Shown: positions 32,732 through 41,770 of the stretch, piece by piece
Position numbering within the stretch: position 1 is the first letter of the stretch
Layout: each line of letters begins with the position of its first letter
Assembly (NCBI GenBank): GCA_035263845.1
Contig: DATFQY010000005.1
Location: 6,770 to 70,769 of the forward strand
Source of the DNA: Thermoanaerobaculia bacterium
GTDB lineage: Bacteria; Acidobacteriota; Thermoanaerobaculia; UBA5066; Gp7-AA6
Length of the DNA: 64,000 nucleotides
Direction of reading: 5' to 3'
Notes under the pieces: model-generated
What the model was told of the DNA's origin: nothing
Databases searched by the model: none
What the model saw: the letters and a program-made list of their open reading frames with translations, nothing else
Position numbers and translations under genes: made by a program

Positions 32732-35700
32732 GTGTTGAACTTCGAAGCAGCCGAAGAGGCTTTCCGCGGCACCTCCCGGTTCGAGCTTCGCCGCCGCCTG
32801 GGGGCTGGCGCCTTCGGGGTGGTCTACGAAGCCTTCGACCGGGAGCGAGGCACGTCGGTCGCTCTGAAGACGCTGCGGCGGACCGGCGAGGAGGCGCTCT
32901 ACCGCCTGAAGCGCGAGTTCCGCTCGCTCGCCGACATCGCGCATCCCAACCTCGCGGCTCTCTACGAGCTCCTCTCGGACGGCGACCAGTGGTTCTTCAC
33001 GATGGAGCTCGTCAGCGGCCGGGCGTTCCTCGACTACGTCTGCGGCGCCGAGGAGGGCGCGCCGGCGGTCCTGGAATCGGCCGAGAGCGTAGATCCCGCG
33101 GCGGACACGGCGACGTTCGCGGGGGGCGTGGAAGGAGCGGCGGCGATTGCAGCGCGGACGGCGGCGCCGCGGGCGGCCCGTTTCGACGTCGCGCGTCTCC
33201 ACGCGGCCCTCCGGCAGGCCGCGACGGGCATCCTCGCGCTCCACGCGGCCGGGAAGCTTCACCGCGACATCAAGTCCTCCAACGTCCTCGTCACGGGATC
33301 GGGCCGCGTCGTGCTCCTCGATTTCGGTCTCGTGACGGAAGCGAGCCTGGCCGACAGCGACGAGAGCATGGCGATGGCCGGGACGCCCAGCTACATGTCG
33401 CCGGAGCAGGCCGCCGGCAACCCGGTGACGGAGGCCAGCGACTGGTACAGCTTCGGCGTGATGCTGTACGAAGCCCTGACGGGCCGGAGCCCGTTCGCCG
33501 GCCGGAGCGCCGAGATCATGCGGGAGAAGCAGCGGCACGAGCCCCGCCGGCCGGGCGAGCTCGTCCCCGGTCTCCCGCAGAACCTCGAAAGCCTCTGCGT
33601 CGAGCTCCTGCGGCGCGACCCGCTGCGCCGGCCTTCCGGGGTCGAGATCGTCCGCCGGCTCGGCGGCGAGCCTCATGCGCTCTCGGAGGGCGGATCGGAG
33701 CTGCGCGCCGCTCCGTTCGTCGGCCGCAGCGCGGAACTCGCCAGGCTCGAGGACGCCTGGCGCGAGGCGGAGCGGGGCCATTCCGTCACGGTCGCTCTCC
33801 ACGGAGGATCGGGGATGGGAAAGACCGCGCTGGCCAGGCGGTTCCTCGACTCGCTCCCCGAACAGATCGTCGTGCTGGCGGGCCGCTGCTTCGAACGGGA
33901 ATCGGTGCCGTACAAGGCCCTCGACAGCCTGATGGACGTCGTCAGCCGCCACCTGAAGCTGCTGCCGGACTCGCGAGCCGAGGCGCTGCTGCCCCGCGAC
34001 GTCCTCGCGCTCGCGCGCCTCTTCCCGGTTCTCCGGAGGGTCGCGGCGGTCGCCGGCGCGCGGCGGCGCGTCCTCGACATCCTCGACGCGCACGAGCTGC
34101 GCCGCCGCGCCTTCGCCGCGTTCCGCGAGCTGATGACGAGGCTTTCCGAAGAGGGCCCGCTGATCATTTTCATCGACGACCTGCACTGGGGGGACGTGGA
34201 CAGCGCCGCTCTGCTGGAGGAGCTCATGCGTCCTCCGGATCCGCCGCCGCTGCTGCTCGTCCTCGCCTACCGCAGCGAAGAGGCCGGCACGAGCCCTCTC
34301 TTGCGGAGGCTTCTCCAATCGAGGCTCGGCTGCGAGCGCTGGCGGGAGATCGAGGTTCAGCCGCTCGACCCGCCGCTGGCCCGCGATCTCGCCCGGGCTC
34401 TGCTGGCCGGGACGCGCCGCGAAAGCGAGAGCCTGGCCGAGACCGTCGCACGCGAGTCCGCCGGCAACCCGTTCTTCCTTTCGGAGCTCGTCCGGTCCGT
34501 CCCGCAGTGGAAGCACCCACCGGCCTCGTCGGCCGACAGCGGTGCCTCCGTCGTCACCCTGGACGGCGTGATCCGGTCGAGGGTCGAGCGGCTCTCCCCG
34601 GCCGCGAAGCGGTTTCTGGAAGTGGTCGCGGTCGCCGGGCGCCCGCTGCCGTTCACCGTCGCCCAGGAAGCCGCGGACCCCGCCGCTCGGGAGAACGTCA
34701 TCGACATCCTCCGGATCGCTCACCTGATCCGGACGCGCGAGTCCGAGACCCGAGAGGAGATCGAGACCTACCACGACCGGATCCGGGAGGCGGTCGTCGC
34801 GGCGATCTCCGAAAAGGAGCTCGAGGCCTGCCACCGGCGCCTGGCGCTCGCCCTGGAAACCTCGGGCCACGTCGACCCGGAATGGCTCGCGATTCACTGG
34901 AAGGGAGCGAAGGACTTCGCCCGGGCGGCGGAGCATGCCGCGGCGGCCGCGCGCCAGGCGTCTGAGTCGCTGGCGTTCGATCGCGCGGCCCGACTCTACC
35001 AGCTCGCGCTGGAGCTCTCGACCTCCCCGGATCCCGCGACGCGCCGCTCCCTCCAGACGAGCCTCGCGGACTCCCTGGCGAACGCCGGCCGCGGGGCCGA
35101 AGCCGCGGAGTCGTACCTCTCGGCGGCGCGGGGAGCTCCCACGGGGGAGTCGCTCGAGCTCCAGCGGCTCGCCGCCGAGCAGCTCCTGCGGAGCGGACGC
35201 ATCGACCAGGGTTTCCCGGTCCTGCGCGCCGTGCTCGCCGAGGTCGGCCTCCGCTATCCGAGGACGACCCTCGGCTCGATCCTCTCGTTTCTGTACCACC
35301 GGCTCCGGATCCGCTTCCGAGGCCTCGAATTCCGAGAGAGGGACGCCTCGCAGATCAGCCCCGAGCGGTTGATCCGCATCGACACCTGCTGGTCCGTCTC
35401 CTTTGGGCTGAGCATGATCGACACGATCCGCGGCCGGGATTTCCAGGCCCTTCACCTTCTGCTGGCGCTGCAGGCGGGCGAGCCCTACCGCATCGCTCGC
35501 GCCGTCGCGATCGAGGCTGGCTACTCGGCCACCGGAGGGCCGCCCAACGCGCGCCGCACGGCGGAGCTCGTGGAGAAGTCCACGTCGCTGGCCGAGAGGG
35601 TCGGCCACCCCCAGGCGATCGGCGTGGCCCAGGTTGCCGTGGGGATCACGGCGATCGCGGAGGGGCGGTGGAAGGCGTCCTGGGAGCTCGCTCAAAAGGG

Positions 35701-40494: not shown

Positions 40495-41770
40495 ACCTTC
40501 CCGACTCGGTGGTGGCCGTGTCCTTGCGCAGCCGGATGGTCATGGAAGCGGAGCCCATCCGGATGGGATCGCCATCGGCCAGCCGGACCGGTCCCGGGAC
40601 GCGCTCGCCTCGCAGAAACGTCCCGTTCTTGCTCTGGAGGTCTTCGAGAGTGGCTTCGCCTTCCCGGACCACGATTCGGGCGTGGCGGCGCGAGATGCTC
40701 TTCGAGGAGAGCTGGATCGTCGCGCCGCGTCCCCGTCCCAGGATGTTCTCGCCGGGCGCGAGCACGATCTCGCGATCACGGTAGACCAGGCGGAACCCGG
40801 AGTCCTCCTCCGAATGCTTCCTCCGCCGCGCCCCGGCGTCTTTCGCGGAGCCCGGGAGCGGTCTCGTCGTCTGCGAAGACGACCTTCCGCGCGAGCGCTT
40901 CCCGGCGCCCTTCTCGGGGATCCGAAGCAACTCTTCCAGCGCGAAGGCGACATCGCGGGCCGACTGGAACCTCTCTTCCGGGTTCTTCTCGACGCACCGG
41001 CGGACGATCGCTTCCAGCGCGTCCGGGGCGTCCTCCGGAAGAGTGAGCGCGGGCGGGTCCTCGCGGACGATCGCGATCAAGGTCTCGATCGTCGATTCCC
41101 CCTGGAACGCCCGGCGCCCCGCGAGCATTTCGTACAGGATCGCGCCGAAGCTGAAGATGTCGGAGCGCGCGTCGGCGCTCTGGCCGCGCACCTGCTCCGG
41201 GGACATGTACCCGACCGTGCCGAGGACCGCGCCCGGCTGCGTGACGGTGGCCGCGGTCCGCGATTCCGGGTCCAGCGACTCGATCAACGGGACGGCCGTC
41301 TTGGCGAGCCCCAGGTCCACGATCTTGATTCGCCCGTCGCGAGTCACGAACACGTTCTCGGGCTTGAGGTCGCGGTGGACGACCCCCTTCTCGTGGGCGG
41401 CCGCGACGCCGTGGGCGATCTGGACCGCGTAGCCGACCGCCTTGCGCCACGGGGTCTCCGTGGTCGCCAGACGCTGGCGAAGCGTCTCGCCGTCCAGCCA
41501 CTCGAGGACCAGGTAAGGGCGGCGATCGTGGACGCCGACGTCGTGGATCGCGAGGACGTTGGGGTGGTCGATCTGTCCGGCTGCCCGGGCCTCCTGCTCG
41601 AACCGCCCCAGCCACTCGGGATCGTCCGCCAGGGAGGCTCCGAGGAGCTTGACGGCGACCGTGCGCCCGATCGAGTTGTCGCGGGCGCGGTAAACCTCGC
41701 TCAGACGCCCGGAGGCAACCGACTCCAGCAGCTCGTAGCGTCCGATGACGGTGCCCGGGGGAAGGGGCAT
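40481..41770 (-). CDS. Ser/Thr protein kinase with a C-terminal FHA domain.
   Basis: Kinase motifs (VAVKLL, HRDLKPENVFV, DLGLA, GYMSPEQ). The C-terminus has an FHA signature (GRGRGATIQLSSKSISRRHARIV...NGTFL). It converges on and overlaps the ceramidase gene end by 14 nt. Confidence 0.85.
   Translation of the reverse strand: MPLPPGTVIGRYELLESVASGRLSEVYRARDNSIGRTVAVKLLGASLADDPEWLGRFEQEARAAGQIDHPNVLAIHDVGVHDRRPYLVLEWLDGETLRQRLATTETPWRKAVGYAVQIAHGVAAAHEKGVVHRDLKPENVFVTRDGRIKIVDLGLAKTAVPLIESLDPESRTAATVTQPGAVLGTVGYMSPEQVRGQSADARSDIFSFGAILYEMLAGRRAFQGESTIETLIAIVREDPPALTLPEDAPDALEAIVRRCVEKNPEERFQSARDVAFALEELLRIPEKGAGKRSRGRSSSQTTRPLPGSAKDAGARRRKHSEEDSGFRLVYRDREIVLAPGENILGRGRGATIQLSSKSISRRHARIVVREGEATLEDLQSKNGTFLRGERVPGPVRLADGDPIRMGSASMTIRLRKDTATTESGRSTNS

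Follow-up and report, generated by a model that had tools for sequence, protein, structure and literature searches.

Organization of the gene string

The stretch of DNA considered here, referred to as the window, comprises 64,000 nucleotides of a Thermoanaerobaculia bacterium genome (assembly GCA_035263845.1, contig DATFQY010000005.1, positions 6,770 to 70,769, forward strand) and carries a string of three co-directional genes that meets a fourth, convergent gene. The first open reading frame (ORF) of the string, on the forward strand at 32732-36526, encodes a predicted PknK-like STAND Ser/Thr kinase of 1264 aa. It is followed on the same strand by a gene for a 519 aa radical SAM (S-adenosylmethionine) enzyme with a predicted N-terminal Rossmann domain of the B12-binding type (36536-38095) and by a gene for a 794 aa zinc amidase of the neutral/alkaline ceramidase family (38110-40494), the N-terminal part of which comprises a Sec signal peptide and a Cys-rich extension. 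On the reverse strand, at 40481-41770, is a gene for a soluble Ser/Thr kinase of 429 aa with a C-terminal FHA domain. Across related genomes the STAND kinase gene is the constant element of this locus and the FHA-kinase gene its second recurrent element, with the radical SAM and ceramidase-like genes between them being variable cargo.

The genes of the string are tightly spaced. An initial annotation of this DNA, made from the sequence alone, had placed the three genes on one strand with gaps of 10 and 14 nt; the ORFs, their coordinates and the 14 nt gap between the radical SAM and ceramidase-like genes are as it had them, and the gap between the kinase and radical SAM genes is corrected to 9 nt. 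A Shine-Dalgarno-like AAGGAG can be read on the forward strand at 38096-38101, 8 nt before the ceramidase-like ATG at 38110, and there is an alternative in-frame ATG for this gene at 38092 that overlaps the stop codon of the radical SAM gene (ATGA). At its 3' end the ceramidase-like gene shares 14 nt with the FHA-kinase gene, in agreement with the convergent arrangement first described. Within the three-gene string, neither terminator-like nor promoter-like sites were found above the shuffled expectation. The corresponding junctions in relatives are 4 nt overlaps or small gaps. With the three genes on the same strand and separated by short gaps, they are probably co-transcribed, in keeping with the proposal that they make up one operon.

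The GC content at third codon positions (GC3) is 0.85-0.91 across all four genes, similar to that of their neighbours, so all of them look native. Horizontal transfer of the ceramidase-like gene was considered and rejected, as its GC3 of 0.85 differs too little from the 0.89-0.92 of the neighbouring genes.

Constant kinases and variable cargo in related loci

A total of 16 related loci was compiled from context look-ups, a metagenome scan and look-ups from the kinase side. Their layouts are given here with K for the STAND kinase, R for the radical SAM enzyme, C for the ceramidase-like amidase, P for a patatin and F< for the convergent FHA kinase. The window itself reads K-R-C-F<. Three other loci read K-R-C (L013, L081 and L083), with which the partial contigs L082 and L090 are consistent, and four have the cargo in the other order, K-C-R(-F<) (L088, L091, L092 and L093). 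The ceramidase-like gene is alone between the kinases in K-C-F< (L084/85), which has different flanks, and is preceded by the 3' remnant of a radical SAM gene in L089 (K-[remnant]-C-F<). Patatins are present in K-P-C-F< (L086) and K-P-C-P<-F< (L087). Two further loci have no ceramidase-like gene, namely K-R-F< (L173) and K-P-F< (L174), both at the Liv/citrate-synthase site that is described below for the window.

The slot between the kinases thus holds seven combinations of cargo: radical SAM plus ceramidase, ceramidase plus radical SAM, radical SAM, ceramidase, patatin plus ceramidase, patatin plus ceramidase plus patatin, and patatin. An orthologue of the STAND kinase (62-72% identity) is present in all 13 of the related loci where the upstream side is covered, and an orthologue of the FHA kinase (54-62% identity) in 10 of the 13 where the downstream side is covered. 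The cargo genes invariably run in the direction of the STAND kinase gene, often with a 4 nt overlap. The cluster is confined to one Thermoanaerobaculia-type acidobacterial lineage, where it occupies one syntenic housekeeping site and one other context. Co-localization of the genes in related genomes, the absence of which would have counted against the initial annotation, was found, within a single lineage only.

In related genomes, each of the radical SAM and ceramidase-like genes can be present without the other. Because the two come and go between constant kinases, there is no fixed three-enzyme pathway. A cluster of kinase-NTPase, radical SAM and ceramidase-like genes extending beyond shared synteny was not found. 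The association is seen at one of the best 80 radical SAM loci and at 13 loci with a ceramidase homologue at least 44% identical, all of them from one lineage in which either gene is dispensable, and not at 76 loci of more distant ceramidase homologues. Taking the STAND kinase and ceramidase pair as the constant core was also tried and rejected; that impression came from a bias of searching from the ceramidase side, and the look-ups from the kinase side found L173 and L174, which have no ceramidase.

In L089, the 323 nt spacer between the kinase and ceramidase-like genes (L089:4227-4550) contains a decayed 3' remnant of the radical SAM gene, covering residues 420-501 in two frames with 43-68% identity. 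The radical SAM gene has been lost here by deletion, with the kinase, ceramidase and FHA-kinase genes left intact. Patatin-like lipase genes are in the slot of the radical SAM gene at L086:6736-7902, L087:6471-7736 and 10091-11173, and L174:10896-12050. The first patatin copy of L087 has a signal peptide.

The two kinases

The product of the first gene matches the Pfam families Pkinase (7e-41) and AAA_16 (1e-26), which bears out its annotation as a Ser/Thr kinase joined to a STAND NTPase. The Hanks motifs are intact (GAGAFG24, VALK43, HRDIK177, DFG197 and SPE223), as are the P-loop motifs (Walker A GGSGMGKT358 and Walker B FIDDL480), and the Walker G, K and D residues are invariant in two alignments of homologues. 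Tetratricopeptide repeats (TPR) had been suggested for the remainder of the protein; they were not detected by Pfam in the last 600 residues (TPR_7, E=0.14), and they do emerge from the predicted structure. An AlphaFold (AF2) model of residues 321-1264, based on an alignment of 33 homologues, has a predicted local distance difference test (pLDDT) score of 88 and a predicted template-modelling score (pTM) of 0.84. It consists of an alpha/beta nucleotide-binding domain (NBD), a helical domain (HD) and a winged-helix domain (WHD) with a beta-hairpin, followed by approximately 560 residues of paired helices. Foldseek matched this model to the STAND-TPR protein 6mfv (3.8e-12), Apaf-1, CED-4 and MalT (8bob), and then to TPR proteins. 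Searching the PDB by phmmer with the STAND part returned nothing useful. Because the motifs are intact and the NBD-HD-WHD and helical-repeat model is confident and has STAND-TPR, Apaf-1, CED-4 and MalT matches, the gene is assigned to the PknK-type STAND kinases, with a predicted NBD-HD-WHD module and a TPR-like helical-repeat sensor.

The kinase domain of this protein is interrupted by an Ala/Gly/Pro-rich insertion of approximately 45 residues (about 105-150; window 32833-33181), which splits the Pfam match and varies among orthologues. A protein of 1445 aa, P0275, has the kinase, AAA_16 and Ceramidase_alk Pfam domains in one predicted product. The product could be a genuine fusion of kinase and ceramidase, or else an artefact of a frameshift or of gene calling where the two genes overlap.

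The product of the convergent gene matches Pkinase (2.4e-45) and FHA (8.5e-20; 71.4 bits, cutoff 20.7), confirming the FHA kinase of the initial annotation. It has the Hanks motifs VAVK38, HRDLK132, DLG152 and SPE190, and the phosphothreonine-binding residues of the FHA domain are present (GR345-347, SRRH360 and NGT382).

Paralogues of the STAND kinase that are 50-54% identical to it provide a view of its wider family. Two of the three adjoin a gene with FHA and Trans_reg_C domains, which makes an FHA reader a recurrent partner of the PknK-like kinase family and suggests that the pairing of kinase and FHA reader is family-wide in PknK-like STAND kinases. These small neighbouring genes (L170:5286-5993 and L172:9753-10418) combine the FHA domain with an OmpR-type winged helix and are EmbR-like.

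The ceramidase-like amidase

The initial annotation had described the third product as a ceramidase-family amidase with a signal peptide, and this is confirmed. It matches Pfam Ceramidase_alk (PF04734) at 1.2e-49 with 169.8 bits against a cutoff of 32.1, the best stretch covering model positions 3-290 of 509. Among PDB sequences it matches human neutral ceramidase (4wgk, 1e-32) and the Pseudomonas enzyme (2zws, 9e-26). It is 100% identical to an NCBI protein from a metagenome-assembled genome (MAG) that is named as a ceramidase-domain protein.

Residues H160, H162, R226, H301, E521, Y556 and Y568 align with H97, H99, R160, H204, E411, Y448 and Y460 of the Pseudomonas ceramidase (PaCD). All seven are identical to those of PaCD and invariant across 30 homologues with 30-77% identity. 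In PaCD, H97, H204, E411 and Y448, together with H99, R160 and Y460, are the zinc ligands and catalytic residues, with roles reportedly described by Inoue et al. in 2009. The retention of the zinc and catalytic residues, on which the earlier assignment depended, is thus borne out, and on this alignment the amidase is predicted to be catalytically competent. On inspection, the N-terminus is clearly a signal peptide (MKRTVVCLALSFLMLAPSARA/QQ), and a lipobox (L-x-G-C) is present in the majority of relatives. The enzyme is therefore predicted to be exported, and to be a lipoprotein in most of its relatives.

A total of 206 homologues of the amidase were found, and those at least 44% identical make up a small clade. 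In every locus of this clade with upstream sequence, an orthologous STAND kinase gene (62-72% identical) is directly upstream of the ceramidase-like gene. Among 76 more distant ceramidase homologues (38% identical or less), no adjoining STAND kinase, radical SAM or FHA gene was found, apart from two weak kinase matches. A literature search combining neutral ceramidase, bacteria and Acidobacteria found no paper.

The radical SAM enzyme

The cluster-binding motif CPYTCSFC (C183-x3-C187-x2-C190) is near-invariant in a wide family and a GGPH motif (99-102) is conserved. The radical SAM annotation is sustained and a domain of the B12-binding type is likely, although the Pfam scores are below cutoff for both B12-binding (PF02310, 21.4 bits against 32.1) and Radical_SAM (19.8 bits against 29.5). 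By its motifs, the gene belongs to the radical SAM superfamily. No named NCBIfam family fits the protein, the best E values being about 1e-7 to 1e-12 and far below the cutoffs. Similarity of the wider family at this far-below-cutoff level is to TIGR04013, TIGR04295, ApyD, HpnJ, AprD4, PhpK, BchE, HpnR and a ladderane radical SAM enzyme.

Profile searches of the PDB with the wider alignment matched AprD4 (4e-11), TokK (9e-5) and CysS (1.5e-4), and the narrow alignment matched nothing. The AlphaFold model is poor (pLDDT 58); its top Foldseek matches, TsrM, AprD4 and CysS, have template-modelling (TM) scores of about 0.3 and are of use at the level of class only. AprD4, the nearest solved relative by sequence profile, has a B12-type domain and yet is not known to use cobalamin. 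If AprD4 does without cobalamin, its use by the window enzyme cannot be assumed either. The protein also has its own conserved C-terminal domain of approximately 200 aa.

This family is very large. More than 6000 homologues are found at E<=1e-5, the best 120 being 67-100% identical. At E<=1e-30 there are about 265 clusters at 50% identity, with sources that are nearly all uncultured MAGs. A scan of species-representative genomes gave at least 600 matches, the best 80 loci of which were analysed (L001-L080). The enzymes encoded there show 64-74% identity and represent at least ten phyla-level groups: Acidobacteriota, Gemmatimonadota, Bacteroidota, Ignavibacteria, Calditrichota, KSB1, Myxococcota, Planctomycetota, Poribacteria and Kryptoniota. 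A neighbour-joining tree tracks taxonomy, and inheritance therefore looks mainly vertical.

In 79 of the best 80 loci there is no ceramidase near the radical SAM gene. The remaining locus, L013, is the only one with an adjoining ceramidase-like gene or orthologous STAND kinase, and it cannot count as independent evidence, given its broad synteny with the window. All ORFs of the 80 loci were clustered, and Pfam was run on 65 upstream and 71 downstream neighbours. This survey found no conserved neighbour, with 109 different Pfam families upstream and 85 downstream. The commonest neighbours are NarL-type response regulators, at 5-7 loci per side and in Bacteroidota and Ignavibacteria only. With a ceramidase-like or STAND kinase neighbour in one locus of 80 and no conserved partner, the radical SAM gene is regarded as a stand-alone gene.

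Tandem arrays of 2-4 NarL/LuxR-type response-regulator genes flank the radical SAM gene in Bacteroidota, Ignavibacteria and Kryptoniota (L048:10848-16137, L055:10849-13131, L077:10810-13135 and L040:3775-5339). A general link of the radical SAM gene to signalling genes was considered and rejected, since the recurrence of response regulators is limited to Bacteroidota and Ignavibacteria. As a very large, highly conserved family without a name, a Pfam or NCBIfam model of its own, a solved structure or a conserved gene partner, these enzymes are a target for enzymology in their own right.

Chromosomal setting

The string is in the ordinary housekeeping chromosome of a Thermoanaerobaculia-type acidobacterial MAG. 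Directly upstream of the STAND kinase gene is a Liv-type ABC transporter operon, and farther upstream are genes for GlyS, PPDK, MutL, an ECF sigma factor and the CCA-adding enzyme. The downstream side has genes for citrate synthase, PEPCK, GlnA, homocysteine methyltransferase and QueA. No Rfam families or tRNAs were found across the whole window. Among the window genes scanned, no mobile-element genes were seen nearby and no sphingolipid synthesis genes were seen.

Two other features of the window were recorded. A patch of lower GC content at 49800-51400 (to about 54200) has a GC of 0.54-0.58 compared with about 0.68-0.70, and holds a 435 aa ORF on the forward strand (50203-51510) and several other ORFs, none with a Pfam match; it is flanked by a Lactamase_B_2 gene and the next high-GC3 genes. 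A second radical SAM gene, unrelated to the first, is at 60867-61898 and is MoaA-type (Radical_SAM 2e-33, plus Mob_synth_C).

Interpretation of the locus

All the components are new members of known families, and their arrangement is lineage-specific and variable rather than a fixed system. On balance, the locus is interpreted as a lineage-specific pair of cytoplasmic signalling proteins, the STAND kinase and the FHA kinase, that is co-expressed with an interchangeable and mostly exported lipid-hydrolase cargo. This is held to be somewhat probable. Whether the kinase pair actually regulates its cargo is a separate matter and the proposal that it does is a tentative one, on the doubtful side, which is favoured by the narrow repertoire of the cargo and its constant co-orientation.

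In this interpretation, the STAND module would bind a ligand and switch its kinase on, and the partner kinase would recognise, through its FHA domain, the phosphothreonine made by the STAND kinase. The fusion of the FHA reader to a second kinase suggests a two-kinase relay. The amidase would hydrolyse an N-acyl amide lipid, perhaps ceramide-like, outside the cytoplasm, either for scavenging or for remodelling of the envelope. The radical SAM enzyme would run its own conserved cytoplasmic reaction, independent of the amidase.

The idea of a kinase-NTPase switch in control of a secreted effector had been put forward at the outset as an alternative to a lipid-processing module. It fits better than a lipid pathway, given a kinase that does not vary and a cargo made up mainly of exported hydrolases. 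The accompanying suggestion that such a switch might be part of a conflict system did not hold, because the PADLOC matches are only to generic kinase domains and the surroundings are housekeeping chromosome.

Several observations weigh against the interpretation as a kinase pair with co-expressed cargo. The case for co-transcription comes from gene spacing alone. All 16 loci belong to a single uncultured lineage and most of them to a single syntenic site, which means that they are not independent observations, and the absence of the radical SAM gene was judged at this site only. The radical SAM gene adjoins the ceramidase-like gene in 10 of the 16 loci, in two orders, and selection rather than mere shared ancestry could keep the two together. 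Against the NCBIfam neutral ceramidase equivalog NF041649 the amidase scores 111.9 bits, where the cutoff is 1200; with a score this far below the equivalog cutoff, the family of the amidase is certain and ceramide is only a candidate substrate. The seven cargo combinations and the housekeeping setting favour a permissive slot. Lastly, a lipid theme may be common to the ceramidase-like, patatin and radical SAM enzymes, as radical SAM enzymes of the B12 type often modify lipids.

The permissive slot is the strongest of the competing explanations. According to this, a site that tolerates insertion and rearrangement happens to be between the two kinases, the cargo is functionally unlinked to them, and any read-through is inconsequential. 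The variety of the cargo, the housekeeping flanks, the one of the three paralogous STAND kinases that has neither a cargo-like nor an FHA neighbour, and the limitation of the association to one lineage are all as would be expected of such an accident of neighbourhood. However, the cargo is always co-oriented with the kinase, often with the 4 nt overlap, and it is drawn from only three families, two of which are exported lipid hydrolases, where random assortment would be broader. The string of kinase, ceramidase and FHA kinase also recurs with different flanks in L084. An accident of this kind is judged rather unlikely.

A more ambitious version of the kinase-pair interpretation builds on the lipid theme. 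The STAND-kinase and FHA-kinase pair would then be a dedicated two-kinase switch for the turnover of envelope or extracellular lipids, with a co-transcribed cargo swapped among three lipid-acting enzymes, the ceramidase-type amidase, a patatin lipase and the orphan radical SAM enzyme of the B12 type. This is considered improbable. Were it true, the radical SAM family would count as a new lipid-modifying enzyme among uncultured bacteria from soils and sediments.

The initial annotation had put first the possibility of one regulated lipid module. As a pathway, a sphingolipid-type lipid would be methylated or rearranged by the radical SAM enzyme, the amidase would cleave that lipid or a relative of it, and the kinase-NTPase would control both. 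The co-directional genes with their gaps of 9 nt and 14 nt are compatible with this, as is the adjacency of the radical SAM and ceramidase-like genes in 10 related loci and two gene orders. A patatin lipase, which is also lipid-acting, can fill the radical SAM slot, and the weak NCBIfam matches of the radical SAM enzyme include HpnJ, HpnR and ladderane-lipid radical SAM enzymes. The B12-type radical SAM enzymes GrsA/B and Gmm modify lipids (PMC11214058). This precedent keeps a lipid role possible for the present family; it is not evidence for one. The distribution of the genes argues against the pathway. The radical SAM family, with 65-75% identity over at least ten phyla, lacks conserved neighbours altogether and is without a ceramidase at 79 of 80 loci. 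Near the kinases, there is a radical SAM gene without a ceramidase (L173), a ceramidase without a radical SAM gene (L084), a decayed radical SAM gene (L089), and a locus where a patatin alone has taken the slot (L174). The radical SAM enzyme is cytoplasmic and the amidase is exported, and the window genes scanned included no gene of sphingolipid synthesis. The claim that the radical SAM enzyme acts on a lipid released by the amidase, as part of a dedicated three-part module, is thus not supported, and a single regulated lipid pathway is regarded as quite improbable.

A STAND-based system of conflict or defence would have the kinase-NTPase detect an invader and set free an effector that is secreted or degrades lipids. 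In its favour, patatin and other lipid hydrolases are effectors of some defence systems, STAND NTPases are common in such systems, and the kinase domains here are matched by two PADLOC models, PD-T4-6 and mad6. These matches are to the generic Hanks kinase domain only, with none for the STAND part, the radical SAM enzyme or the ceramidase. The site is a syntenic housekeeping one with vertical inheritance, native GC3 and no mobile-element genes nearby among those scanned, and the candidate effectors are exported via Sec or as lipoproteins and are not intracellular. A defence system is therefore very improbable indeed.

The picture of a kinase pair with swappable cargo is testable, and it replaces a three-enzyme lipid pathway that is unsupported. 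If the kinases do control the cargo, Ser/Thr signalling would be tied to the hydrolysis of extracellular lipid amides, which to our knowledge is rare in bacteria.

Comparison with known systems

The closest known counterpart of the first gene is PknK, a STAND Ser/Thr kinase related to MalT (PMC4381067). The window kinase has the same parts as PknK of M. tuberculosis and the MalT-type STAND proteins, these being the Hanks kinase domain, the AAA_16-type NOD (NBD-HD-WHD) and the helical-repeat sensor, and its model matches MalT (8bob) with a TM score of 0.62 on the target. One of its homologues (P0341) is named PknK by NCBI. Unlike PknK and MalT, it has no LuxR or other DNA-binding output. It differs further from PknK in being paired with a convergent kinase-FHA gene and co-oriented with genes for an exported hydrolase and a radical SAM enzyme, a pairing for which we know of no description in the case of PknK.

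The placing of a Hanks kinase gene next to a gene for an FHA phosphothreonine reader is shared with PknH-EmbR and PpkA-Fha1, the similarity to PknH-EmbR being clearest in the EmbR-like genes beside the paralogous kinases. In the window, as compared by genes alone, the FHA reader differs from both in being itself fused to a second kinase.

The radical SAM enzyme resembles TsrM, CysS, TokK and AprD4 in its predicted architecture, a probable N-terminal B12-type Rossmann domain containing GGPH followed by a CX3CX2C radical SAM core. It is distinguished from them by being outside the named NCBIfam families and by its own C-terminal domain. In view of what is known for GrsA/B and Gmm, a role in lipid modification would be possible for this family.

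The amidase belongs to the same Pfam family as CerN/PaCD (2zws) and human neutral ceramidase (4wgk), is identical to PaCD at the aligned residues and, like CerN/PaCD, is predicted from its signal peptide to be exported. It differs from the neutral ceramidases in its extra Cys-rich N-terminal segment, in its longer and divergent C-terminal domain, and in having lipoproteins as relatives. The regulatory setting also differs. CerN is induced by sphingosine via the AraC-type regulator SphR (PMC5150637) and is not encoded beside kinases, whereas the window amidase is encoded between two of them.

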